This document shows, piece after piece, positions 12,783-30,912 of a DNA stretch of 64,000 nt. Both the position numbers and the translations under genes were made by a program. The notes under the pieces were generated by a model. That model did no database searches, was not told the DNA's origin, and worked only from the letters and a program-made list of their open reading frames with translations. Every line of letters begins with the position of its first letter. Position 1 is the first letter of the stretch. This DNA comes from Gemmatimonadota bacterium (lineage in GTDB: Bacteria > Gemmatimonadota > Gemmatimonadetes > Palauibacterales > Palauibacteraceae): contig JAJCZV010000235.1 in the NCBI GenBank assembly GCA_029262175.1, positions 3,014 to 67,013 of the forward strand. The letters run 5' to 3'.

Positions 12783-13367
12783 ATGCGAGATGAGAGCTTG
12801 GTCGTAAAGACCGAAGAGCGTCTTCTCGGAAGCGTCGCGCGCGGCGAACCGGGGGCAGTCAAGGCCTGCTTGGACCAATACGGGTCCTTGGTCTGGTCCT
12901 TGGCGTTGAGGAGGACCGCGTCTCGCGAGGAAGCTGAGGACGCCGTGCAAGAGATCTTCGTGGATATCTGGCGAAGTGCGGAGCGCTACGATCCGGCCAA
13001 GTCGTCCGAGGCCGGGTTCGTTGCGTTGATCGCGCGGCGACGTCTCATCGACCGCTCTCGCAAAGCCAGCCGTCGTCCGATCCTGACCCAGCTCCCCGAC
13101 GGCTTGCAAGCCGGTTCAGACGATCACGAAGCGCTCGAGCGCAGAGTCGAGGCGAGCCAGCTTCTGGAAATGGTCAATGAGTTGCCCGAGAAGCAGCGGG
13201 ACTTCATTCACCTGGCGATTGTCACCGGTCTTTCGCACACGCAGATCGCGGAGCGCACGGATACGCCCCTCGGCACGGTGAAGTCGAACATCAGACGTGG
13301 TCTGGCGGAGATCCGGCGACAGGTTACCGGGTCCGCCTCTCGAGACCAGACGGCGGGGGCATCGTGA
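12783..13367 (+). CDS. ECF (sigma-70 family) RNA polymerase sigma factor
   Basis: Region 2 (YGSLVWSLALRRTASREEAEDAVQEIFVDIW) and region 4 HTH (LPEKQRDFIHLAIVTGLSHTQIAERTDTPLGTVKSNIRRGL). Confidence 0.85.
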   Translation: MRDESLVVKTEERLLGSVARGEPGAVKACLDQYGSLVWSLALRRTASREEAEDAVQEIFVDIWRSAERYDPAKSSEAGFVALIARRRLIDRSRKASRRPILTQLPDGLQAGSDDHEALERRVEASQLLEMVNELPEKQRDFIHLAIVTGLSHTQIAERTDTPLGTVKSNIRRGLAEIRRQVTGSASRDQTAGAS

Positions 13368-14143
13368 ACGATCGACCGCTGCCGCAGCTCGAGGAGCTGC
13401 TGATCGATCGGGCAACCGGAGACCTCGATGCGGAGGGCGAGGCGCGATTCGCCGAGATGTTCGCGACGGAGCCGGGCGCCACTGATGACACCTACGAGCT
13501 GCTCGTCGCCGAGATGACTGCGGCGATGCTCGAACAGGATGGGCTCGAGTCCATGCCCGAATCTGTGGCCGCGGCGATCCTCGAAGGTGCCCAGGATCGC
13601 ACCGCGCCCGTCGATATTTCGCCCGCGACCCACCGCGCGCCACGGGCGTCTTGGCCCACGTGGTCGGGCTGGTTGCTCGCTGCAGCGGCGCTCATTGGCT
13701 GGTTGGTTTTACCCGGCCTGAGGACGCCCGCAGGCCCGCCGCCCGAACCCACGGTCGCGCAGATCAGAGACGCGCTCGTGAGTGGCGGCTCGGCGGTACA
13801 GCTCGCGTGGACCGCCACCGAGGATCCCGCCGCTGCCGGCGCTTCGGGAGAGGTGGTTTGGAGCACGGCAGAACAAGCCGGCGTCATGACGTTTTCCGGA
13901 CTCGAGGCGAATGATCCTTCGATCTCCCAGTACCAGTTATGGATCTTTGACGCGACACGCGACGATCGCTTTCCGGTCGATGGCGGTGTGTTCGATGTCG
14001 TGGCCGGTCAGGACGTATTGATCGAGATCCAGGCCAAGATCGGAGTGCGCGAACCCAGCCTGTTTGCCATCACCGTCGAGCAGCCCGGTGGGGTCGTGGT
14101 CTCGGATCGCGAGCGGATCGTCCTCGTGGCGCAGGCCGATTGA
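13364..14143 (+). CDS. Anti-sigma factor (RskA/anti-sigma-K-like, single-pass membrane)
   Basis: Its ATGA overlaps the sigma-factor stop. An N-terminal anti-sigma region and one TM helix (WSGWLLAAAALIGWLVLP) precede a periplasmic RskA-like C-terminal domain. Confidence 0.65.
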   Translation: MNDRPLPQLEELLIDRATGDLDAEGEARFAEMFATEPGATDDTYELLVAEMTAAMLEQDGLESMPESVAAAILEGAQDRTAPVDISPATHRAPRASWPTWSGWLLAAAALIGWLVLPGLRTPAGPPPEPTVAQIRDALVSGGSAVQLAWTATEDPAAAGASGEVVWSTAEQAGVMTFSGLEANDPSISQYQLWIFDATRDDRFPVDGGVFDVVAGQDVLIEIQAKIGVREPSLFAITVEQPGGVVVSDRERIVLVAQAD

Positions 14144-14544
14144 TGCTCCGATCGACGCTGCTCATGGTCGCGTTTGGGCTCTTCCCCGGAATCACCGACT
14201 CGCACCCCGCCGGGTCGACTGCACGGCCGGACCCGGAAGCATTGGTGGGGACGTGGGTGGTCGATCTTCGACCGACGCCCGACGCCGCGCCGTACCTCCA
14301 GGAGTTCGTCGTCACGTCGGTGGCGAACGGCCAACTCGAAGGAACGTTCTATGGGAGTTCGATCGAAGAAGGACGCATCAACACGGATTGGGGATTGGTC
14401 CGCTTTGCCTTCGTCACCACCGATGGGGCAGGCGTTTATCACACGTCCGGCAGGCTAGACGGGGGACGCCTCGAAGGACTCACGCATTCGCTCGGCCGCG
14501 ACTTCCTCAGTTATTGGACGGCCGAAGGGCCGGCCGCTCGGTAG
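14140..14544 (+). CDS. Small secreted protein of unknown function, co-transcribed with sigma/anti-sigma
   Basis: ATGA overlap with the anti-sigma stop. Signal peptide MMLRSTLLMVAFGLFPG. No recognisable domain. Confidence 0.45.
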   Translation: MMLRSTLLMVAFGLFPGITDSHPAGSTARPDPEALVGTWVVDLRPTPDAAPYLQEFVVTSVANGQLEGTFYGSSIEEGRINTDWGLVRFAFVTTDGAGVYHTSGRLDGGRLEGLTHSLGRDFLSYWTAEGPAAR

Positions 14545-14580
14545 GGTTCGCGAGACCTCCAAACCTCTACGATTGACCTC

Positions 14581-15093
14581 TTGACCTCACGAATCGAATC
14601 GCCGCCCCTTGGGCGGACGCTCATAGCTCTCGCCGTATGCTTGGTGGCCCCGCTCGCGGTTGGCGCGCTATCAGGGCTGGCCACTCAGGACGGCGTGCGG
14701 ACCTGGTATCAGCAAATCGTGAAGCCCGGGTTCACGCCTCCGGACTCCCTGTTCGGGCCGGTCTGGACCGCGCTCTATTTCGCCATGGGCTGTGCGGCGT
14801 TCCTGGTGTGGCGTGCCGGCAATGCTGGCGCCGACGCCCGCGGGGTCCGAGTGAGTCTCATTTGGTTCGTGATCCAATTGTTCGCGAACAGTCTGTGGTC
14901 CGTGATCTTCTTCGGGTTGCAGAACCCGGGGCTCGCGTTCGCCGAGATCCTAGTGCTGTTGGCCCTGATCGCGGTGACGACGAGAAGTTTCTGGGATCAC
15001 TCGCGCCTCGCCGCCGCGCTCATGGTGCCCTACCTGCTGTGGGTGAGCTTCGCGACCGCGCTGAATTTTTCCATTTGGCGTCTCAACGCGTGA
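14581..15093 (+). CDS. tspO: TspO/MBR family tryptophan-rich sensory protein
   Basis: Five TM helices with the conserved WYQQIVKPGFTPPDSLFGPVWTALY block and Trp-rich C-terminal helices. The start is TTG, or a nearby internal TTG/GTG. Confidence 0.8.
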   Translation: MTSRIESPPLGRTLIALAVCLVAPLAVGALSGLATQDGVRTWYQQIVKPGFTPPDSLFGPVWTALYFAMGCAAFLVWRAGNAGADARGVRVSLIWFVIQLFANSLWSVIFFGLQNPGLAFAEILVLLALIAVTTRSFWDHSRLAAALMVPYLLWVSFATALNFSIWRLNA

Positions 15094-15989: not shown

Positions 15990-17174
15990 GTGCTCGCCCG
16001 CTACTCGGTCCGCGAGCTCGTACACCGCCCGCTGCGAACGATCCTCGCCCTTCTCGGTGTGGCGGTCGCTACGGCGATGCTGGTCGACATGCTCATGCTG
16101 GCGGGCGGGATCCAGAGAAGCTTTGCCGAGTTACTCTCGGCCCGCGGCTATGAGCTTCGGATCTCCCCCAAGGGCACGTTGCCCTTCGACACGGAGGCCA
16201 CGATCCCGAACTTCGCCAGCCTGATGGACACCCTCGCGGCGACGAACGGCGTAGCAGGGGTCGGACCGGTGCTGGCGTCCGCGGTGATCCTGGCGCACGG
16301 TGACGGTGCGGCCCCCTCAGACCTTTCGGTGCGCGCGATCGCCCTCGGCATCGATCCAACCGAGCAGGGACTGTTTCGTTTGATCGACGGTGAGGATCCG
16401 GTCGAGAACGAAGTTCTTCTGGACCAACCGACCGCCGAAGCGTTCGGTGTCGCACTAGGCGACATGGTCGAGATGCGCGTCGCCGGCGGTCTCGACGTCG
16501 CGGGACGGTCTGCACAGATGCGGGTTTCGGGGATCGGCGAGTTTCTCTATGCCGCTCGCGGCGACGTCCCGATTGCGGTGCCCCTGGAGGAACTCCAGCT
16601 ACTCACGGGAAAGCTGGATCGGGTGTCGTTCGCGATGATACGTGTCGCGGAGGACGCCGAGGCGGAAGCGGTTCGAACCGAGCTAGCCGGCGCGGCGCGT
16701 GTCGAGGTCGTGACCTTGGCGGGCATCGTCGCGCAGGCCAATGAACGACTCTCGTACTTTCGTCAGCTGGCGCTCATCCTCGGGTCGGTAAGTCTCATCG
16801 TGACCTCGCTTCTGGTCGGCACGATCATGGCTGTGTCCGTCAGCGAACGGCTGGGGACCATCGCGGCGCTGCGGGCGATCGGAATTTCGCGTCGAAGCAT
16901 CGTCGGAAGCCTGACGGCGGAAAGCCTCATCCTTTGCGCACTCGCAGGCGCGGCCGGGCTCGGGCTCGGCGTGATCGTAGCCGAATACCTGGAGACGATC
17001 CTTTCCGACTTCCCGGGTCTCCCGCTCGCCGTCGAGTTCTTCGTTCTCCGACCCGAGAGTCTCGCGACCGCCTATGTGCTTCTCCTCGCGGTGGGGAGCG
17101 TCGCGGGCCTCGTTCCAGCTTGGCGGGCGACCCAGCTCGAGGTGGCCACGCTCCTCCACGCGGAGGAGCCATGA
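15990..17174 (+). CDS. FtsX-family ABC permease (MacB/LolCE-like, full architecture)
   Basis: TM1 (LRTILALLGVAVATAMLVDMLMLAGG), then a ~220 aa periplasmic domain, then three C-terminal TM helices. Confidence 0.75.
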   Translation: MLARYSVRELVHRPLRTILALLGVAVATAMLVDMLMLAGGIQRSFAELLSARGYELRISPKGTLPFDTEATIPNFASLMDTLAATNGVAGVGPVLASAVILAHGDGAAPSDLSVRAIALGIDPTEQGLFRLIDGEDPVENEVLLDQPTAEAFGVALGDMVEMRVAGGLDVAGRSAQMRVSGIGEFLYAARGDVPIAVPLEELQLLTGKLDRVSFAMIRVAEDAEAEAVRTELAGAARVEVVTLAGIVAQANERLSYFRQLALILGSVSLIVTSLLVGTIMAVSVSERLGTIAALRAIGISRRSIVGSLTAESLILCALAGAAGLGLGVIVAEYLETILSDFPGLPLAVEFFVLRPESLATAYVLLLAVGSVAGLVPAWRATQLEVATLLHAEEP

Positions 17175-17884
17175 CGGACACCGTCGGATCGGTGAACCTC
17201 GAGGCGGACAGCGACCGGACGATCGTTACGGCATCAGACGTCGTTCGCGAGTACCGCATGAGCGGCGTTCCCGTTCGCGCCCTCCGCGGCGTATCGCTCT
17301 CGGTCGCGGAGCGGGAGTTCATCGCGGTCATGGGGCCGAGCGGGTCCGGAAAGTCGACGCTGCTCCACCTGCTTGGCGGCGTGGACGTGGCGACATCTGG
17401 CAGGGTCGTTTTTCTCGGTCAGGACTTCGGGCGCATGTCCGTCGAAGCACGCGCACGACTTCGGCTTCGCAAAGTGGGACTCGTGTTTCAGCGTTTCCAT
17501 CTCCTGCCGATGTTGACCGCGCTCGAGAACGTCGAGCTCCCGATCGCAGCGCTCGGTGTCCGGCGAGCGGAGCGTCGCGACCGCGCCGCATCTTTGCTTG
17601 CGCGCGTGGGCTTGGACGACCGGCTGGGCCACCGGCCGGGAGAGCTTTCGGGAGGACAGCGACAGCGCGTCGCCATCGCACGCGCGCTGGCCAACGAGCC
17701 CGCCGTGCTGTTGGCGGACGAGCCGACCGGAGAGCTGGACCGCGCGACCTCTCACGGCGTGCTCGAGTTGTTCCAGCGGCTCAACAGCGAGGGCACCACC
17801 ATCGTCGTCGCCACCCACGACCCGGAACTGGCGGCGGGGGCAAGCCGACACGTTGAAGTCGTCGACGGCCGGATCGGATCATGA
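17171..17884 (+). CDS. ABC transporter ATP-binding protein (MacB/LolD family)
   Basis: Walker [10 protein letters not shown], signature LSGGQRQR, Walker [16 protein letters not shown] overlap with the permease stop. Confidence 0.85.
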
Positions 17885-19380
17885 TCTGGCGGCTCGTGCT
17901 GGCCTCGATTCGGCAGCGACCGGCGCGCAGCCTGCTCCTCCTCTTCGGCTATGCGCTCGGGGTCGGGGTGACGATCGCTCTGCTTTCAATCGGCGGCGCA
18001 CTCGTGACCCAGGCGCGCGATCAGACCTTGATCGGTGGCGGTGACCTCGTGGTGCTCCCGGCCGGTATCGATCTGGAGACGCTGAAGACCGGCGCCGTCA
18101 GCTCGATGTTCTTTTCGATCGAACCTGCCCCGTTCCTGTACCGCGAGGTTCTATCCGGTCCGCGGTTCGAAGATCGCGTGACGGCCGCCGCGCCCTGGAT
18201 CGACGACGAACTCCTATATCTCGAGATCGACGGCGATCTGATCCCGATCTCCGCGGGCGCGAACATCCCGAGCCTCGCGGCGGCGTTGGGCGTCGCACCT
18301 GACCTGGTCGCAGGGGACTGGAGGGACCTGCCGATCGATACTCGCTGGCGCGCCCCGACCGATGCCGAGCTCTACGCTTCCCTCGACAGGCTGCACGTTC
18401 CCGAGGGTGCGGCTGCCGGAGATTCGACCTGGGCCGAGTGGCACTATTTCAATGTGCTCCTGCCCGATGACGCCGGTTGGCTCTATCTGACCTACATGAT
18501 CGCGGGCGAAGTGCCGGACGGTCGATGGGGAGGTCGGCTTCTAGCTACGCTCGTCGAACCTGGAGTGGGGGAGCGTGCCTTCGTGTTCGAGGTCCCGGCC
18601 GACGAGGTCGTCTTCGTCGCTGGTCAGCCGGATCTTTCGATCGCCGGGTCCTCCGTCACGATTGGCTCCGACGGCGTGTACCATCTCGAGGCCCTGATTC
18701 CGAGCGAAGGAAGCGGCGACCCGCTCCGGGTGGACTTGTCGGTGGCGGCCGCTTCGCGCCGGTACTTGCCGCCGCTCGACATCGGCGGCGCGGCACTCAC
18801 ATCGGGGTACACCGTCCCAATGCTCGATGGCCGATCCACGGGCCAGATCTGCGTGGGCACGCGGTGCCGGAATCTGGAGGAGGCCGGCACGTACCACGAC
18901 CATAATTGGGGAACCTGGAGTGAGGTGACGTGGAACTGGGGGCAGGCGACGGTGGGCGAGTATTCCGTCTTGTACGGCGGGGTGGCCAAGTCCGGTCAAG
19001 CCGAGGGGGCCCACTTTCTGTACGTCGCCGACAGCGATGGGTTCGCGGGCGTGTACCCGATCCGCGCTATCCGAACCCAGTGGCGAGACGATCCCTTGAA
19101 AGCGAGCACACCGCATTCGATCTCGGTCATTGCCGGATCCGGGCGCGACTCGCTGGCGCTCGAGATCGATGTTCTTCACGCGCGGGCGACCGCGCTCCCG
19201 GCAGGGGCCGACACTTCGCCCGCGCTCTTCTATCAGATGCGCGGGCGTGCAACGCTGTCGGGGCGCCTGTCGGACACCCCAGCGAGTGGCATGGGATTGG
19301 GGTTCTTCGAGACGTGGGCGCAGGCACCCTCTTCGACGCGGGCTAGCGCCCCTCCGCCCGACCCTTCCCAGAGTCGCTGA
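17881..19380 (+). CDS. Membrane-anchored AttH/CrtC-like (hydroxyneurosporene-synthase-family lipocalin-like) protein with an FtsX-type TM1 N-terminus
   Basis: ATGA overlap with the ATPase stop. The first 45 aa (IRQRPARSLLLLFGYALGVGVTIALLSIGGA) look like a MacB/FtsX TM1. The ~450 aa soluble domain contains AEWHYFNVLL, resembling the (E)WWYF block of the CrtC/AttH family. Confidence 0.5.
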   Translation: MIWRLVLASIRQRPARSLLLLFGYALGVGVTIALLSIGGALVTQARDQTLIGGGDLVVLPAGIDLETLKTGAVSSMFFSIEPAPFLYREVLSGPRFEDRVTAAAPWIDDELLYLEIDGDLIPISAGANIPSLAAALGVAPDLVAGDWRDLPIDTRWRAPTDAELYASLDRLHVPEGAAAGDSTWAEWHYFNVLLPDDAGWLYLTYMIAGEVPDGRWGGRLLATLVEPGVGERAFVFEVPADEVVFVAGQPDLSIAGSSVTIGSDGVYHLEALIPSEGSGDPLRVDLSVAAASRRYLPPLDIGGAALTSGYTVPMLDGRSTGQICVGTRCRNLEEAGTYHDHNWGTWSEVTWNWGQATVGEYSVLYGGVAKSGQAEGAHFLYVADSDGFAGVYPIRAIRTQWRDDPLKASTPHSISVIAGSGRDSLALEIDVLHARATALPAGADTSPALFYQMRGRATLSGRLSDTPASGMGLGFFETWAQAPSSTRASAPPPDPSQSR

Positions 19381-19408
19381 CTCCGATCCACGCCTATTGA
19401 ACGCCGCT

Positions 19409-20389
19409 TCACTCGAGATGACGCTGCGTCGCCCGACCGAGTTCGGAGAGCAGGTCGCGCAGCTCGACGAGGTCATCCATATGTCGGAGCCCCGCTGCAT
19501 CCAGGGCGGAACGATAGCGCTGTGCTCCGGCCCCGCCGACGACGACGGGCACACTCGCGGGCAAACGCCCCCCGAGTCGCACCAGCTCCGCGGGCAGAGC
19601 CGGATCGTCAACGAGATGGACGATGCTCAACGCGACCAAGTCGACGGACGTCGCGCGCGCCGCGTCCGCGATATCATCGGCGGGTAGGTCGGCCCCCAAG
19701 AACGTGATGCGGCACCCCATCGCGGCTGCGGTCGTGGCGACCAATAGGGCACCGACGTCGTGATGCTGGCCCGCAGGCGTCGCGACCAGGACATGCGCGC
19801 CCCCGGACGGTTCGTCTTCCATCCTGCCGACGGCCTCCGTCAGCATGGCCCGCACGACCGCGGTCGCGGCGTGTTCTTGTGCGACAGTCAGTTGCCCGTC
19901 GGCCCAAGATTGCCCGACCTCGTTCATGAGCGGCACCACAACGCCCTCGATGAGTTCCCAGGGAGAGAGTAAGAGCATCGCGCGCCGTATCGTCGCTTTG
20001 AGGCGCGCGGTGTCCATCCCGATCACCGCTCGTCGCGACTCGGTGAGGTGGGTCTCGCAAGGGCCCCTCGATGCCGTGAGGCCGGACCCATGCTTGGGCG
20101 ATTGCGCTTCGTCCTCGCGGGTAAGCGACGCCAGCGCATCCGAGGAAAGCGCGGCCACCTGCCCGATCGTCCGTCCGGCGTCTGTAACCTGCTTGAGGAG
20201 CCGCAGCCTCTCGACGTCGGTGTCCGAATACAGGCGCCGGCCGCTCTCCGTCCGCGCCGGCTCCACGACCCGATAGCGTCGCTCCCAGGCTCGGAGCACG
20301 TCCTTGGAGAGCCCAGACCGCCGCGATGCGATCTGGATAGGGTGCCGTTTAGTCCCGTCGACCAGCGTGTTTGGCGTAGTTGAATCCAT
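19409..20389 (-). CDS. MerR-family regulator with C-terminal cobalamin (B12)-binding domain (CarH/LitR-like)
   Basis: N-terminal MerR HTH (IQIASRRSGLSKDVLRAWERRY...LYSDTDVERLRLL). The C-terminal Rossmann-like B12-binding domain has GQHHDVGALLVA (DxHxxG-type His ligand context). GGAGAC RBS. Confidence 0.75.
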   Translation of the reverse strand: MDSTTPNTLVDGTKRHPIQIASRRSGLSKDVLRAWERRYRVVEPARTESGRRLYSDTDVERLRLLKQVTDAGRTIGQVAALSSDALASLTREDEAQSPKHGSGLTASRGPCETHLTESRRAVIGMDTARLKATIRRAMLLLSPWELIEGVVVPLMNEVGQSWADGQLTVAQEHAATAVVRAMLTEAVGRMEDEPSGGAHVLVATPAGQHHDVGALLVATTAAAMGCRITFLGADLPADDIADAARATSVDLVALSIVHLVDDPALPAELVRLGGRLPASVPVVVGGAGAQRYRSALDAAGLRHMDDLVELRDLLSELGRATQRHLE

Positions 20390-20422
20390 TTCGGTCTCCC
20401 CGGCGAATCCTTGTTTTGAACC

Positions 20423-20506
20423 GAATGTACAGAGTTTGTCTACTCTCCATCAATAGAATATGTAGCATACTATTGATAAATTTCATAGACAAACCGTTTT
20501 ACATTC
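20423..20506. promoter_or_regulatory. AT-rich nested imperfect palindrome (candidate operator) in the divergent carH-like / fasciclin intergenic region
   Basis: Outer arms GAATGTACAGAGTTTGTCTA (20423-20442) and TAGACAAACCGTTTTACATTC (20486-20506). Inner perfect 8-bp IR ATCAATAG (20449-20456) / CTATTGAT (20470-20477). About 35 % GC in a ~67 % GC genome. Confidence 0.5.
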
Positions 20507-20582
20507 GACAAGACTTGGACCAACGGCTGGCCCGCGAGCGCGAGCGCGCCGGATCGGATCCAGAACTTTAAGGGGATAAAAA

Positions 20583-21098
20583 ATGAAGGTCTCAAAGCTC
20601 TTCGCACTCGCTTTGGCAGCCGGCGTCGCGGTATCGAGCCCGGTAGCCGCGCAGCACACGACAATGGCGGCGCAGCACCCGACCATGGATATCGTCGACA
20701 CGGCCGTATCCGCCGGCTCGTTTGAAACGCTCGTCGCCGCGTTGACGGCCGCCGGTCTGGTCGAGACGCTCAAGGGTGACGGTCCGTTCACCGTGTTCGC
20801 ACCCACGGACGAAGCGTTTGCGGCGCTCCCCGAGGGAACCGTTGCCAACCTGCTCAAGCCGGAGAACATCGATCAATTGGTCGCGGTGCTGACGTACCAC
20901 GTGGTTCCGGGTAAGGTTCTCAGCGCCGACGTGGTGGGCCTGTCGTCCGCGAAGACCGTTCAGGGCGAGAGCATCTCGATCGCCGTCAAGGACGGCAAGG
21001 TCATGATCGACGAGGCGCAGGTGGTCACCGCCGACATCGAGACGACCAACGGAGTCATCCACGTGATCAACCAGGTCATCCTTCCCGGGCAGAACTAA
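20583..21098 (+). CDS. Secreted fasciclin (FAS1) domain protein
   Basis: Signal peptide, then FAS1 motifs ([13 protein letters not shown]...[11 protein letters not shown]...TTNGVIHVI). Strong RBS AAGGGGA. Confidence 0.8.
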
Positions 21099-21120
21099 CC
21101 TTCCTGTCGGTTGCTTCCGC

Positions 21121-21157
21121 GGGACCCGACCGACGACGGTCGGGTCCCGTTCTTTTT
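21121..21157 (+). terminator. Rho-independent terminator after the fasciclin gene
   Basis: Stem GGGACCCGACCG / CGGTCGGGTCCC with loop ACGA, followed by GTTCTTTTT. Confidence 0.7.
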
Positions 21158-21189
21158 GCCACATCCCTACGCGTGGCTAGGGTTCGCAC

Positions 21190-21410
21190 AAGCGGCGACC
21201 CGCTCCGGGTCGACTTTTCGGTGGCGGCCGCCTCGCGCCGGTACTTGCCGCCGCTCGACATCGGCGGCGCGGCTCGATGGCCGATCCACCGGCCAGAACC
21301 CGTGCGAGTGGCATGGGATTGGGGTTCTTCGAGACGTGGGCGCAGGCACCCTCTTCGACGCAGGCTAGCGCCCCTCCGCCCGACCCTTCCCGGAATCGGT
21401 GACGCGGATC
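21190..21410 (+). repeat. Decayed partial duplicate of the 3' end of the AttH-like gene (segments of 18722-19373, collapsed)
   Basis: Three near-identical blocks: 21190-21285 matches 18712-18790; 21286-21305 matches 18820-18845; 21306-21391 matches 19276-19370. The copy has internal deletions, is not in one frame, and has no start, so it is a gene remnant. Confidence 0.7.
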
Positions 21411-21610
21411 AACACCTTCTGGATATGGATCGAAGAACGCTTGATCAAGCAGGTATTGGGTCTCGAATTCAAAACCGGAGCGATACTCGCGAACCACTTC
21501 CGCGAACGGACGCTTTGCGGTTCGCCACGATCGGGCCGAGGAGTCTGAAGTGCTTCTCGCTGTTTGGAGGGGTTGTCCATCACGGACGTGGATGATACCC
21601 TAAGGTTTCA

Positions 21611-21630
21611 TTATGTGTAGTATACTACTC
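21611..21630. promoter_or_regulatory. Perfect 12-bp palindrome GTAGTATACTAC in the AT-rich promoter region of the esterase gene
   Basis: The palindrome (21617-21628) sits ~45 bp upstream of the 21672 start. It shares TGTAG(C/T)ATACTA with 20461-20472 in the carH/fasciclin operator region. Confidence 0.45.
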
Positions 21631-21671
21631 GTAACGACACCTATAGCTCTCGACTAGAGTAGAGGTCATTC

Positions 21672-22844
21672 ATGAAGGAGTTCACGCTCAGGCTTGCGGC
21701 AACAACGCTCCTATTGGTTGGGGGACCGACTGCGGCATTGCAGGCTCAGGAGGGTCGCCAACATACGTTTTCGTCAGGGGTTCTGGGTGAGGAGAGATCA
21801 CTCACCGTCCACCTCCCGAGCTCTTACGACGAGCAGGGCGGCTACGCCTACCCGGTCCTCTATTTGTTGGACGGACATGCGAACGCCGGCTATGCACTCA
21901 CGGTCTCCGAGTTCTTGGCTGAGAGTGGCGTGGCCCCCGAACTGATCACCGTCGCGATACCGGCCGGGCCGACGCGCGGCCGCGACTATCTGCCACCGAA
22001 CCCGAGTGGCGACGCGAACTCGTCAGGTGAGGCGGATCGATTTCTAGATCATCTCGAGAAGGAGATCATCCCTTTCGTTGAATCCAACTACCGAGCGGCA
22101 CCTTTTCGGTTGGTTTCTGGCCACTCACTGGGCGGCGTCTTCGTGACCCACGCCATGATCACGCGCCCAGGACTCTTCCGCGTCCACCTTGCTCAGAGCC
22201 CCTATCTCATCGAGGCAATCGCTGCGCCTCTGCTCGAGCGCGTCGCGATGTCGCTCGGAGATCGCGCGGGCAGCTCCTTTTACTACATGAACCTCGGCGA
22301 GGAGCCGAACCTGTCAGAGAACTACGACCGGCTTCGCTCGCTACTCGCCACCCGAGCTCCTGGAGGCTTCGAGTGGGCAAGCGACCGTGAAGACGGCGTG
22401 GGCCATATGGGCACCCGCTTGATCGGTCACTATGCCGGCCTCAAGGGATTCTTCGCCGACCGATGGACGCTTCCTACCGCGACGTTGGAGAAAGATGGGG
22501 GCGACGCACTGGCCGCCTATGTCGACCGCCTCAACGCGGATTTTGGTTATCCGGTTCTGATCGGCGAGTCTTCCCTCCAACAGGCGACCCAGTTGTTCTT
22601 TTCCAAGCAAGACATAGCTGCGGCGGGAAGCTCCGCCGAACTCTACGCCAAATACTATCCGCGTTCCCCAATCGCGCACTTCCTTCGGGCAAATGCTCTG
22701 GCTGCTGGTGGTGCAAGAGAAGAGGCGCTCGAAGCGGTCGCGGCAGCAATTTCTTTGTACGAAGCAGAGCCAGATGAAAGCCTTGCGCCGCTCTACCAAG
22801 GGATGAAGCAACTTCGGGCAGGACTAGGCGGAGGTGATCGGTGA
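21672..22844 (+). CDS. Secreted alpha/beta-hydrolase, esterase family (enterochelin-esterase-like) with C-terminal helical/TPR-like tail
   Basis: Signal peptide, then the GHSLGG nucleophile elbow and an esterase-D-like layout (YPVLYLLDG...). Confidence 0.7.
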   Translation: MKEFTLRLAATTLLLVGGPTAALQAQEGRQHTFSSGVLGEERSLTVHLPSSYDEQGGYAYPVLYLLDGHANAGYALTVSEFLAESGVAPELITVAIPAGPTRGRDYLPPNPSGDANSSGEADRFLDHLEKEIIPFVESNYRAAPFRLVSGHSLGGVFVTHAMITRPGLFRVHLAQSPYLIEAIAAPLLERVAMSLGDRAGSSFYYMNLGEEPNLSENYDRLRSLLATRAPGGFEWASDREDGVGHMGTRLIGHYAGLKGFFADRWTLPTATLEKDGGDALAAYVDRLNADFGYPVLIGESSLQQATQLFFSKQDIAAAGSSAELYAKYYPRSPIAHFLRANALAAGGAREEALEAVAAAISLYEAEPDESLAPLYQGMKQLRAGLGGGDR

Positions 22845-23121
22845 AGATCAACAACCTGTCGGCCCCGCCGACCGAATCGGGAGTCTCGTCGCAAGCGTCG
22901 ACTTTGTCGCTTTCCCTGTCATCCGAGAAGTGGACAAGCTCGGCCTTCAAGCCTTGATGAACGCTGCTCCGTGCGGGCAGCAGGCTCCTCGGCAAGTCTC
23001 AGTAGGACGGCGATGAACCGGCGCAAACACGGAGACTACGTCCCAGATATCGCGGACCGACACCGTCGATACCGGTCAGCGAGCGATTGCGGAGTCACGT
23101 CTTCCCAACGAGGAGGCGCAC

Positions 23122-23586
23122 ATGTCTGACAAGGAACTCACGGGCATTCGCGTCCCACCTGTTCTTCATTTCCTATCGTTCCTCGTTGTCGGCATCCTCC
23201 TCGACCGACTTCGGCCCGCTCCATTCCTGCCAACGGCGGTCGCACGGTTGCTGGGAGCCGGTATCATGAGTCTGGCGTTCGCGACGCTCGCCTGGGCAGG
23301 CCTTCATCTCAGGCGTGCGAACACAACCCACGACCACCACGTGCACTCGACCGCCATGGTCTCGGAAGGCCCGTTTCGCATCTCGCGGAACCCCATCTAC
23401 CTGGGGCTTCTTGGTCTGATGATCGGGCTGGCGTTCCGGGGGAACAGCCTGTGGCTCCTAGCGATGGTCGTGCCCCCGTTCATAGTGCTCAATCGGTGGG
23501 TCGTTCCCCGAGAGGAGGCCTACCTGGAGCGCATGTTCGGCGATGCGTACCGTCGGTACCTACGAAACGTCCGCCGGTGGCTTTGA
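23122..23586 (+). CDS. ICMT/PEMT-like membrane methyltransferase family protein
   Basis: Four TM helices plus the C-terminal RNPIYLG...EE.YL...FG..Y..Y motif of isoprenylcysteine carboxyl / phospholipid methyltransferases. Confidence 0.7.
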   Translation: MSDKELTGIRVPPVLHFLSFLVVGILLDRLRPAPFLPTAVARLLGAGIMSLAFATLAWAGLHLRRANTTHDHHVHSTAMVSEGPFRISRNPIYLGLLGLMIGLAFRGNSLWLLAMVVPPFIVLNRWVVPREEAYLERMFGDAYRRYLRNVRRWL

Positions 23587-23648
23587 GCCGAACGTGACCA
23601 CTAACCGACGCGCAGAGAAGCGCCCGCGCGCTTACCACGGAGACGGAC

Positions 23649-24113
23649 ATGCGACTCGGTCTACTTCTAGTACTCTTGGTGTCGATGTCGGCGTGCGAAC
23701 CAATGAGCTCAGCAACGGACAGCACCACCGAGGCGAAAGCCGCGTTTCAGGCGTACGTAGACGCGATCAACAACGGCGATATCGAGTCCGCGTCTGTGAT
23801 GTACGATGTCGAGGAGGGATTCCATTGGGTCGAGCGCGGCGGCCTCCAATACGCCCGCGGCGAAGACGCTGCGGAGTCCTTGAGGACCCTGACGTCTAAT
23901 GGTGGCGTCCCCCGCATGTCGATCGATGACATACATGCTGCGCATCTCTCCAAAGGTGCCGCACTCGTGTCAGCACACTTCGACTTCTCCGTGCTTTCCG
24001 ATACCGGTGAGGAACGATTCAGCTTCGATGGGTGGATGACCGTCGGCATGGCTATGCGAAGCGGTGGATGGCGCATTGCAGGGGGCCAAAGCGGGCCAGG
24101 TGTTGCTCCCTAG
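23649..24113 (+). CDS. Lipoprotein with SnoaL/NTF2-like fold (DUF4440-like)
   Basis: Lipobox-like LVSMSAC, then a ~130 aa NTF2-like pattern (AFQAYVDAINNGDIESASVMY...). Confidence 0.5.
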   Translation: MRLGLLLVLLVSMSACEPMSSATDSTTEAKAAFQAYVDAINNGDIESASVMYDVEEGFHWVERGGLQYARGEDAAESLRTLTSNGGVPRMSIDDIHAAHLSKGAALVSAHFDFSVLSDTGEERFSFDGWMTVGMAMRSGGWRIAGGQSGPGVAP

Positions 24114-24119
24114 TGACTC

Positions 24120-24388: not shown

Positions 24389-24498
24389 AACCCCAGAATA
24401 TCTTTTCCGCTTGACCGTGGGGATTCCACCGGGTGTGGCCCGATTCACGTCCGTCGACTAGCCTGAGGAAACCGCTAGTCAAAACGAGGGGAGCCGCT

Positions 24499-25698
24499 AT
24501 GCCGTTCGTCCGCCCGCGCCGTTTCGTCCACGCATCCGCTCTCGTGGCGCTCTTTCTTGTCGTCTTCGCTCCGTGGGTCGCCGCTCAACAAGCGCCGACG
24601 CTGTCCTCCGCGGATCCTGCCGATGTGGGGATGTCCGCAGCGGTGCTCCATGGAGCACTGGGCCTGTACGAGGAAGCGGTCGAGCGCGGAGATCTCGTCG
24701 GCGCGGTCGTGCTCGTCGCGCGCCACGGGAAGATCGTTCTTCACGAAGCCGTGGGTTGGAAGGACAGGGACCGAGATCTGCCGATGGAGCGGAACACGAT
24801 GTTCCGCATGGCGTCCAACACCAAGCCCGTCGTCGCCACAGGCATCGCGCAATTGGTGGAGGCCGGTAAGCTCGATTACGACGATGTCGTTCGCGCGTAC
24901 CTGCCCGAATGGGACAACTATCGATCGGGGTTCATCACGATCGGGCAGTTGCTCTCGCATAGCAGCGGCCTTCGGATCCCCACCCTGTTCCTACAGCCGC
25001 TGGGGGATTCACCGACGCTGCAAAGCGAAGCGGCGCGCTTTGGGGCGGTCGGCGCCGTGGTACCGCCGGGCGAGAGCTACAGCTACAACAACCCGGGCTT
25101 CAACACGCTCGGCGCGCTTGTGGAAATCGGTTCCGGACAACTCCTCGAGGATCGCCTACGAGCGACGCTCTATGAGCCACTCGGCATGGTCGACAGTTAC
25201 AACCACAAAGCCGCTCATGAACTCGATGGCAAGCTCGATCGGATGGGTGCCGTCTACTACGAACGCGGCCCCGACGGACAGTGGAAGCCCGACGGCACGC
25301 CAGGCGGTCCAGCGGCTTTCCCGTTTGCGCGCGCCTCCGGCGGAATGATCTCGACAACTTCGGACTACGCGATCTTCTGTCAGATGTTCTTGAATGGTGG
25401 CGTGTACGATGGCGTCCGCTACCTCGAGCGGGAGACCGTCGAACTCATGACGTCTCCAAAGATCCACATCGCCGGCGAGGGCGAAAGCGCTTCGTACTAC
25501 GGCTATGGCTGGCGCATCGCTGACGGCACCTATGGTCACGGGGGCTCTGACGGGACCAACGCCTGGATCGATCCGGAGCGCGGAATCATTGGACTCGTTT
25601 TTACGCAGACGCCGCGCGGTGAGAACCCGCTGGATCGGTTCCGCGAACTCGTAAACCTCTCCATCGCGGATCGCGACCTGTCTACTGACGACCGATAA
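24499..25698 (+). CDS. Secreted serine hydrolase, beta-lactamase/PBP-like (class C/esterase family)
   Basis: RBS GAGGGGAG. Signal peptide, then the SxxK motif in FRMASNTKPV. The overall length fits beta-lactamase-fold esterases. Confidence 0.75.
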   Translation: MPFVRPRRFVHASALVALFLVVFAPWVAAQQAPTLSSADPADVGMSAAVLHGALGLYEEAVERGDLVGAVVLVARHGKIVLHEAVGWKDRDRDLPMERNTMFRMASNTKPVVATGIAQLVEAGKLDYDDVVRAYLPEWDNYRSGFITIGQLLSHSSGLRIPTLFLQPLGDSPTLQSEAARFGAVGAVVPPGESYSYNNPGFNTLGALVEIGSGQLLEDRLRATLYEPLGMVDSYNHKAAHELDGKLDRMGAVYYERGPDGQWKPDGTPGGPAAFPFARASGGMISTTSDYAIFCQMFLNGGVYDGVRYLERETVELMTSPKIHIAGEGESASYYGYGWRIADGTYGHGGSDGTNAWIDPERGIIGLVFTQTPRGENPLDRFRELVNLSIADRDLSTDDR

Positions 25699-30567: not shown

Positions 30568-30912
30568 TCAAACACCTTCCAAAGCGAGACGGAGAACGCG
30601 ATCTACGGCCGCGGAGGACTGACCCCAGTGGGCCTCCTCAGCTTCGAGCTGTTTCCAACCTGCTTTCGTCAGCGTGTAGTACCGCGCGCGTCGGTTGTTG
30701 TCCGTGATCCGCCAATCGGAGAGCACCCACCCCTTCCGCTGGAGCCGACGGAGCGCCGGATACAAGGAGCCCTGGTTGAGTTCGAACACGTCCTTGGACA
30801 GGTGCCGGATCCGCTGAGCGATCCCCCAGCCGTGCATCGGCTCCAGGGTGAGGGTCTTCAGGATCAGCAGATCGAGCGTTCCGCGAAGCAGATCGGATCG
30901 GATGAGTGACAC
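30568..30912 (-). CDS. PadR family transcriptional regulator
   Basis: LILKTLTLEPMHGWGIAQRIRHLSKDVFELNQGSLYPALRRLQRKGWV is the PadR winged-helix core. Confidence 0.85.
   Translation of the reverse strand: MSLIRSDLLRGTLDLLILKTLTLEPMHGWGIAQRIRHLSKDVFELNQGSLYPALRRLQRKGWVLSDWRITDNNRRARYYTLTKAGWKQLEAEEAHWGQSSAAVDRVLRLALEGV

Follow-up and report, generated by a model that had tools for sequence, protein, structure and literature searches.

The 64-kb window analysed here, which is the whole 64,000-nt stretch of contig JAJCZV010000235.1 taken from a Gemmatimonadota (Longimicrobiales-like) metagenome-assembled genome (MAG), carries an operon of the composition FtsX-FtsX-ABC (ATP-binding cassette) that ends in a gene termed here the AttH-fold gene, and a broken, partial second copy of the 3′ end of that gene lies farther downstream. 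This relic and the DNA on both sides of it are the subject of the present analysis. Read from left to right, the locus consists of the intact AttH-fold gene together with a 17-codon stub of a ybgA-like gene on the opposite strand, a junction J1 (19395|19396) at which the stub meets carH, a carH-like gene, an operator region, a fasciclin-domain gene and its terminator, a second junction J2 (21189|21190), the relic, and what looks like an acquired island. The positions of these features are collected in Table 1.

Table 1. Features of the AttH-fold/carH/fasciclin locus, in window positions
Feature	Position	Strand	Remarks
AttH-fold gene	17881–19380	+	intact, 499 aa; closes the FtsX-FtsX-ABC operon and supplies the repeated blocks
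Block A, resident gene	18711–18794	+	codons 278–305; repeat search, blastn
Block B, resident gene	18822–18847	+	LDGRSTGQ; repeat search, blastn
Block C, resident gene	19276–19395	+	last ~35 codons, stop 19378–19380, 15 nt of flank
ybgA stub	19343–19393	−	...VSDSGKGRAEGR and stop; antisense to the AttH-fold extension; cut at J1
carH-like gene	19409–20389	−	MerR HTH, B12-binding_2 and B12-binding, all above the Pfam cut-off
Nested palindrome, candidate CarH operator	20422–20507		three nested inverted repeats in the AT-rich carH/fasciclin spacer
Fasciclin-domain gene	20583–21098	+	Pfam E 3e-41
Intrinsic terminator of fasciclin	21119–21160	+	14-bp stem and T run
Relic block A′	21190–21273	+	96 % identical to A; 21190–21262 reproduced in Logan contig L084
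Relic block B′	21272–21297	+	96 %; frame-shifted through a 29-nt deletion
Relic block C′	21298–21417	+	92 %; after a 428-nt deletion; old stop 21400–21402 and 15 nt of flank
Reproduction of C′	21332 onward in L085; 21395 onward in L086		Logan contigs
ybgA relic block 1	21365–21455	−	stop and last ~29 codons: EFETQYLLDQAFFDPYPE..., frameshift, DSGKGRAEGR, stop
ybgA relic block 2	21472–21563	−	about codons 97–128 from the gene end; ~186-nt deletion from block 1
Second acquired island (putative)	21592–24119	+	promoter palindrome, esterase, PEMT and SnoaL-like genes; truncates the ybgA relic on the right

Comparison of the window with itself by blastn reveals three blocks of the AttH-fold gene that recur behind J2. 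Block A (84 nt, 81/84 identical, E 6e-35), block B (26 nt, 25/26, E 3e-6) and block C (120 nt, 110/120, E 3e-45) are collinear direct repeats of A′, B′ and C′ with a summed identity of 216/230 (93.9 %), well above chance, and no further match above noise to 21100–21500 is found by blastn in the rest of the window. The block offsets of 2479, 2450 and 2022 nt show that the copy is without 29 nt and 428 nt of the gene, the join at the 29-nt deletion having a 2-nt GC microhomology. Both losses shift the frame, and A′, B′ and C′ each lie in a different one. Block A encodes GDPLRVD(L/F)SVAAASRRYLPPLDIGGAA and block B the octapeptide given in Table 1, while block C comprises the final ~33–35 codons with the stop (TGA in the copy) and the common 3′ flank. 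Leu286 of the gene is Phe in the relic, a derived non-synonymous change, since orthologues carry Leu. Three re-joined blocks with the intermediate parts deleted, and these very peptides, had been described in an earlier note on this DNA; the repeat search, blastn and the offsets bear that description out, except that the shared flank, put there at 20 nt, measures 15 nt. The note had also closed the scar at 21410; the repeat itself runs to 21417, and the scar as a whole reaches ~21591, about 175 bp farther right. Two fully identical tracts remain between gene and copy, one of 58 nt (19282–19339 and 21304–21361) and one of 41 nt (18754–18794 and 21233–21273), so that the recombination instability suggested in the note is plausible.

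The source gene itself is not damaged. Its 499-aa open reading frame (ORF) aligns end to end with orthologues, the closest of which are merely 70–71 % identical in a protein search, and 83 related loci (80 genome loci and L081–L083) share the conserved FtsX-FtsX-ABC-AttH-fold operon. The protein has no above-threshold match in Pfam, NCBIfam or PDB sequence searches; its best Pfam match, Tocopherol_cycl, stays sub-threshold (16 bits; cut-off 26.6). Modelled with AlphaFold from 30 orthologues (predicted local distance difference test score, pLDDT, 71.6), the protein matches the putative AttH 2ich with an E value of 2e-10 and a template-modelling (TM) score of 0.62–0.64 on the target, and it also matches kievitone hydratase and related two-barrel enzymes. 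The earlier label “AttH-like” is hence supported at the level of the fold but not at that of the sequence family. The orthologues terminate in ...FFETWTRGR/DR; the protein of the window continues for ~16 aa (APSSTRASAPPPDPSQSR, 19323–19380), an extension that is not found in the orthologues and that is read antisense to a former ybgA tail.

That tail is most clearly seen to the right of the copy, where the minus strand reads ...RPFAEVVREYRSGFEFETQYLLDQAFFDPYPEGV, then, after a frameshift, ...VTDSGKGRAEGR and a stop. In tblastn comparisons this reading matches the C-terminus of a ybgA-like gene that is located next to the AttH-fold orthologue in the relatives L003 and L011. The ybgA of the relatives encodes a YbgA-type protein with DUF523 (2-thiouracil desulfurase) and DUF1722, and the orthologues of L003 and L011 are full DUF523-DUF1722 members according to Pfam. 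The gene is convergent to the AttH-fold orthologue and lies 7 nt (L011) or 30 nt (L003) from its end, and ~0.9 kb away in L007; in all three relatives a photolyase gene comes next after ybgA. Block 1 of the relic (21367–21455) matches the ybgA 3′ ends of L003 (69 %, E 2e-6), L011 (E 5e-5) and L007 (E 0.05) as DNA, and these are its sole DNA matches in ~1.3 Mb of loci. Block 2, which lies ~200 nt deeper in the gene than block 1, aligns collinearly with L003 with a score of 22 against 10.6 ± 1.4 for shuffles, and it is collinear with L007 and L011 as well; weak collinear tblastn blocks agree with this placement. A ybgA hidden Markov model searched in six frames against the window gives 21599–21180, 19393–19346 and 21607–21368 as its three best matches. 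The sole Pfam match of the relic peptide is the C-terminal end of the DUF1722 profile (positions 101–117, E 0.043), and its 14.5 bits lie below the cut-off of 22.5 for that profile, membership being defined by a match to PF08349 or PF04463 above the gathering score. The strength of the assignment comes from collinearity, position and the DNA-level matches. Judged from these alignments, the minus-strand relic is a fragment of a former YbgA-like member of the DUF523-DUF1722 type.

Further support comes from the tail of this gene. The tail of the stub left of J1 matches ADSGKGR(A/S)AGR of L003, L007 and L011. The motif DSGKGRAxGR is specific to the AttH-adjacent type of ybgA and is not found in the CarH-linked ybgA genes of L087–L089, which end differently. 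Because the C-terminal extension of the AttH-fold protein is read from DNA whose other strand holds the ybgA tail and its stop, the two convergent genes overlapped by 38 nt in the ancestor, and this overlap is present in both copies of block C. The pair of ybgA and phr (DUF523/DUF1722 protein and photolyase) is known from E. coli, and it occurs in L003, L007, L011 and L089. Like those loci, the relic has the C-terminal DUF1722 end with the lineage-specific tail at the expected position; in contrast to them, only ~60 of its ~320 ybgA codons can be recognised, with frameshifts and interruptions, and no photolyase gene is left. Since ybgA follows the AttH-fold gene in the three relatives, it is the copy, and not the intact gene, whose right-hand neighbour is still the ancestral one.

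The interval between original and copy (19396–21189, 1794 bp) holds carH, a palindromic AT-rich spacer, the fasciclin gene and its terminator, and nothing else, so that the content stated in the earlier note, exactly a carH-like gene, an operator region and fasciclin, is to be extended only by the terminator. The NCBIfam CarH equivalog is the best match of the carH product, with 133 bits against a cut-off of 400. Its three domains are those that define the CarH/LitR B12-dependent photoreceptor repressors, and a response to light is predicted on this ground. The nearest CarH homologues are 59–61 % identical and adjoin fasciclin genes; in L087 and L088, the contexts of these homologues, carH and fasciclin form a conserved divergent pair. 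In the spacer, the palindrome arms are CGAATGTA...TACATTCG, GTTTGTCTA...TAGACAAAC and ATCAATAGAAT...ATACTATTGAT, with TGTnnA half-sites 11–12 bp apart, and the single match of TGTnnA-N5-TGTnnA in the window (20426–20442) lies inside it. In L087 and L088 the spacer contains, in place of these, TTGTC(C/A)A repeats spaced 11 bp apart. The Thermus-type CarH operator, consisting of three 11-bp repeats nAnnTnnACAn, has no match in either intergenic region, and the spacer palindrome is a candidate CarH operator of a form unlike the Thermus three-repeat type. The N-terminal linker of the fasciclin protein contains a tandem 21-nt duplication (20646–20687) that encodes AAQHTTM and then AAQHPTM.

The carH/fasciclin pair is foreign to the site, because it is found downstream of the AttH-fold operon in 0/83 related loci. 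This comparison of synteny, together with the conservation of the divergent pair elsewhere, supports the earlier proposal that the repeat is the footprint of a duplication or recombination that may have brought carH and fasciclin in. No integrase or transposase domain is found among the annotated genes from 5.6 to 28 kb. A site-specific integrative element is rejected, as the insert holds carH and fasciclin alone without integrase or recombinase, and a transposon likewise, in view of the 685-bp duplication, the lack of terminal inverted repeats at 19396 or 21189 and the lack of a transposase. A plasmid search returned generic fasciclin similarity of ~70 % only, and a mobile-element origin of the inserts was discarded with it. 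As a separate observation, L083, a 70 %-identical relative from JGI (Joint Genome Institute) 3300041024, has a 249-aa fasciclin gene (477–1226) that is 60 % identical to that of the window and lies directly upstream of the FtsX-FtsX-ABC-AttH-fold operon. This arrangement suggests a functional link between fasciclin and the transporter that is independent of carH.

Before any history is read from the locus, a chimeric or mis-collapsed MAG contig that mixes two strain alleles has to be considered. The source is a MAG, a strain variant (L090, 98.8 %) is present in the same project, and the segment 21263–21331, with both internal junctions, is absent from any second contig. The Logan assemblies speak against such an error. 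Contig L084 (SRR15505518) equals 19310–21262 of the window at 100 %, spans J1 and J2 and carries the variants private to A′; L085 starts at 21332 and L086 (SRR15505519) covers 21395–23056. Both outer junctions and the right flank are therefore reproduced at 100 % in SRR15505518/SRR15505519, and J1 is found in SRR15505515 too, although these runs belong to the MAG's own project and are possibly the same reads. The contig ends at 19310, 21262 and 21332 are the unitig break points predicted at k=31 for a two-copy repeat, and contigs that end where the identical tracts would branch directly indicate two copies in the reads. The internal joins have 0–2 nt of homology, while a de Bruijn mis-join needs k−1 shared bases, and they are for this reason not mis-joins of that type. 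Moreover, remains of ybgA beside the copy would make no biological sense in an artefact. The mis-assembly that the earlier note had named as a possible refutation is consequently extremely improbable.

We consider it highly probable that 21190–21591 preserves, as a non-coding fossil, the junction at which the AttH-fold gene and ybgA met tail to tail in the ancestor, and that an insertion-duplication left it there. Three features expected of such an event are found: the repeat flanks heterologous DNA, the proximal copy is intact, and the distal one is non-coding and joined to the ancestral neighbour, which is the geometry of an insertion-duplication. In the ancestral state, the AttH-fold gene faced ybgA in convergent orientation, with phr behind the latter. 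With carH and fasciclin, the incoming DNA would have brought a functional 3′ end to take the place of that of the AttH-fold gene; it would have been anchored by homology within the gene, whereas the join at 21189|21190 would have been made illegitimately or through a single crossover of a circularised fragment. Because the incoming DNA brought a replacement end, the AttH-fold gene would have stayed intact while its old 3′ end was displaced downstream and then decayed. The repeated segment was originally 685 bp (18711–19395, ybgA stub included), and its second copy is now 228 nt. The decay of ybgA involved the ~186-nt deletion and frameshifts, and its 5′ two-thirds, along with the photolyase gene, were replaced by the island that begins at 21592.

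The origin of the inserted DNA may be judged from the differences between gene and relic. Of the 14 resident-relic differences, the four in blocks A and B all fall at third codon positions of the AttH-fold gene (4/4), and two of the three in the ybgA tail are synonymous in the ybgA frame. Additional information comes from the sister strain contig L090 (SRR15505515, 3200 bp), which is 98.8 % identical to 16392–19590, contains J1 and stops before the relic. L090 agrees with the relic at 19280, 19281 and 19340, so that 3/14 differences are private to the gene of the window, and without them the divergence between resident and relic amounts to 11/230 (4.8 %), a value equal to the inter-strain level at carH. 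The two strains differ at 24/2884 sites (0.83 %) up to 19275 and at 13/315 (4.1 %) from block C into carH; the corresponding counts before and after J1 are 29/3004 and 8/195 (Fisher p = 0.0014), and 5/7 of the carH differences are synonymous. This step in divergence near 19276 indicates a recombination breakpoint at the 3′ end of the AttH-fold gene, at which recombination with ~4 %-diverged DNA has occurred. The three block-C sites common to L090 and the relic could alternatively reflect gene conversion from the relic. Because of the third-position differences, the synonymous changes in the ybgA tail and the equality of 4.8 % with the inter-strain carH level, a relative diverged by ~5 % is favoured as the donor, and we give this origin about an even chance.

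A serious rival is duplication in place, all within one lineage. Either a tandem duplication took in the 3′ part of the gene and its neighbours, or the replication fork switched template, copied carH/fasciclin at another place in the genome and returned to a point 685 bp upstream; the distal copy would then have decayed neutrally. A direct repeat flanking the insert, several deletions as after long neutral decay, and the derived, non-synonymous Phe286 of the relic, as under relaxed constraint, all suit this course, and no donor lineage was found in the searches. It accounts less well for the preponderance of synonymous differences, in the AttH-fold gene as well as in the ybgA tail, since no such bias is expected of a dead copy, and for J1 and J2 being without microhomology. 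There is also no second trace of carH/fasciclin to the right of the relic, the comparison of 21418–21680 with 19396–21189 scoring at shuffle level. Its tandem form puts no foreign genes between the copies, whereas 1794 bp of non-native carH/fasciclin DNA lie there; a simple tandem duplication is rejected on this account, a point that the earlier note leaves out of consideration. On balance, duplication in place appears possible but rather doubtful.

Several points weigh against an insertion-duplication from a diverged donor. No pre-insertion or donor genome above 72 % protein identity is present in the collections searched; protein searches returned no relative between 72 % and 98 % identity, and neither an exact nor a codon-degenerate scan of metagenome DNA found a pre-insertion allele or donor locus. 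The order of events is read from relatives that are just 60–71 % identical. The single protein matches to ybgA are weak (E 0.002–0.3), the segment with the two internal deletion joins is the one seen in no second contig, and the lack of microhomology at J1 and J2 indicates no specific joining mechanism. Finally, the codon-position argument comprises 7 sites and was made after the data had been seen, and the donor route needs J1 to have been formed earlier in the donor, which makes two events.

A partial, near-identical copy of a 3′ end a few kb downstream is also the arrangement of a template/variable repeat pair of a diversity-generating retroelement (DGR), or of cassette-type gene conversion acting on the C-terminus, and the three block-C differences common to the relic and the gene of the sister strain can be read as gene conversion. 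No reverse transcriptase is present among the annotated genes from 5.6 to 28 kb, however, and the mismatches are not adenine-specific (A at 4/14 relic and 2/14 resident bases); a DGR pair is essentially refuted by these two results. Deletions furthermore break up the copy, and the part of the protein to which it corresponds consists of conserved core strands, not of a variable surface. We regard the chance of programmed diversification of any kind as close to nil.

It is likewise worth asking if the relic serves as a functional element, namely as a second terminator in reserve, as the source of an antisense or sponge RNA that acts on the AttH-fold mRNA and starts at the palindromic promoter near 21600, or as a recombination substrate retained for the reversible loss of carH/fasciclin. 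Two of the three A′-specific changes, G21211C and G21217T, convert CGACCCGCTCCGGGTGGACTTGT to a perfect 7-bp hairpin with TTTT behind it (21196–21220), ~45 nt after the real fasciclin terminator; this structure is probably due to chance, the count of terminator-like structures being 3 against 1.6 ± 1.1 in shuffles. A sigma-70-like match on the minus strand (21619–21592) points into the relic and is at chance level. The minus strand of 21160–21620 folds better than shuffles (z = −2.4), which the palindromes alone can explain, whereas the plus strand is without excess structure (z = −0.4). There is no Rfam match, the plus-strand ORF of 140 aa and the minus-strand ORF of 72 aa in the relic belong to no NCBIfam or Pfam family, no relative with this stretch was found, and frameshifts and deletions across two adjacent genes form a pattern of decay. 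The 58-nt and 41-nt identical tracts could support RecA recombination. Taken together, a function of one of these kinds is very unlikely, and the relic itself is best regarded as functionless. Less likely still is the specific idea of a recombination handle for carH/fasciclin, or of an antisense RNA under light control that targets the 3′ end of the AttH-fold mRNA. If the former were true, precise loss of the light module, or its regain by transformation, would make a population heterogeneous in photoprotection; the latter would entail transcription from the palindromic promoter at ~21600.

The right border of the relic is set by the trio of esterase, PEMT and SnoaL-like genes. The DNA of this island is 82–85 % identical to L091 (GCA_025491055.1; L091 4251–7496), where the trio stands in an unrelated context of HTH_36, XRE and CdiI-like genes on a contig of 59.7 % G+C, and its own G+C content is 0.53–0.62 against 0.64–0.69 for the backbone. 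The island is not found between the AttH-fold gene and the beta-lactamase gene of L081, the closest long relative. From its composition and its matches, the trio appears to be another island gained by horizontal transfer, and a more recent one. An AT-rich palindrome immediately precedes the esterase gene, at 21603–21642 (AGGTTTCATTATGTGTAGTA/TACTACTCGTAACGACACCT), part of which (GACACCTATAGCTC) is conserved in L091. It has only a TGTAGnATACTA-like core in common with the carH spacer; the island might be under the same regulator as that spacer. The possibility that the palindrome is a duplicate of the carH operator was dismissed, as 21418–21680 and 19396–21189 align no better than shuffles. About 9 kb farther right, a PadR-family gene (30667–30882) has 75 % DNA identity to the L091 contig (8300–8515), and more than one segment of the window may share ancestry with the lower-G+C organism of L091.

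The downstream genes differ between relatives. In L081, a single aldo-keto reductase gene separates the AttH-fold gene from a beta-lactamase gene whose identity to 24433–25698 of the window is 77 %, and other relatives have ybgA-phr-amidase or amidase alone at this position. Because of these differences, the slot after the operon is, as far as gene order tells, a hotspot of gene flux. On the other side of the operon, 12783–15093 encodes an extracytoplasmic function (ECF) sigma factor, an RskA-type anti-sigma factor, a small unassigned ORF and TspO. If carH, fasciclin and the lost photolyase gene are counted with them, these genes resemble a light/singlet-oxygen stress neighbourhood.

The feature is a known kind of rearrangement scar and not a new kind of system. 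Displacement of 3′ ends that leaves orphaned gene ends behind is documented for rhs loci and for the effector-immunity arrays of the Vibrio cholerae type VI secretion system (T6SS) (Kirchberger et al. 2017, PMC5361080). That study attributes the orphan ends to homology-facilitated illegitimate recombination and cites Jackson et al. 2009, de Vries & Wackernagel 2002 and Prudhomme et al. 2002. The present locus shares with these systems homology-anchored incoming DNA, a resident 3′ end displaced as an orphan fragment, and the lack of an integrase. It differs in that the incoming end is of the same allele type (~95 % identical) and brings no new toxin tip, that a regulator/fasciclin pair takes the place of the immunity gene as payload, and that the orphan is heavily eroded, without a plausible retained function.

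Two further comparisons are instructive. The element e14 and phage 21 integrate in the 3′ end of E. coli icd and carry a replacement end. As in icd, the insert supplies a near-identical 3′ end, the gene stays intact, and the displaced pseudo-copy differs mainly at silent sites; in contrast to icd, the 1794-bp insert has no integrase, excisionase or phage genes, and a duplication of 685 bp greatly exceeds the size of an att core. Insertion-duplication also results when a circular molecule integrates by Campbell-type single crossover. Here the homologous segment is found as direct repeats on both sides of heterologous DNA, as that model predicts, but no vector-like or replicon sequence is seen, and a circular intermediate is hypothetical.

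For annotation, the scar carries a plain warning, as ORFs called across 21173–21595 are not genes. As a piece of gene gain, the locus would be a clean natural example of an integrase-free, homology-anchored acquisition, in which a gene survives the insertion intact when the incoming DNA supplies a replacement 3′ end. For the organism, an uncultured member of the Gemmatimonadota, the relic would mark one dated layer in how its photoprotection neighbourhood (ECF sigma/anti-sigma factors, TspO, ABC transporter and AttH-fold protein) came about; there a ybgA-photolyase pair would have been replaced stepwise, by the B12-photoreceptor/fasciclin module first and by the esterase island next.

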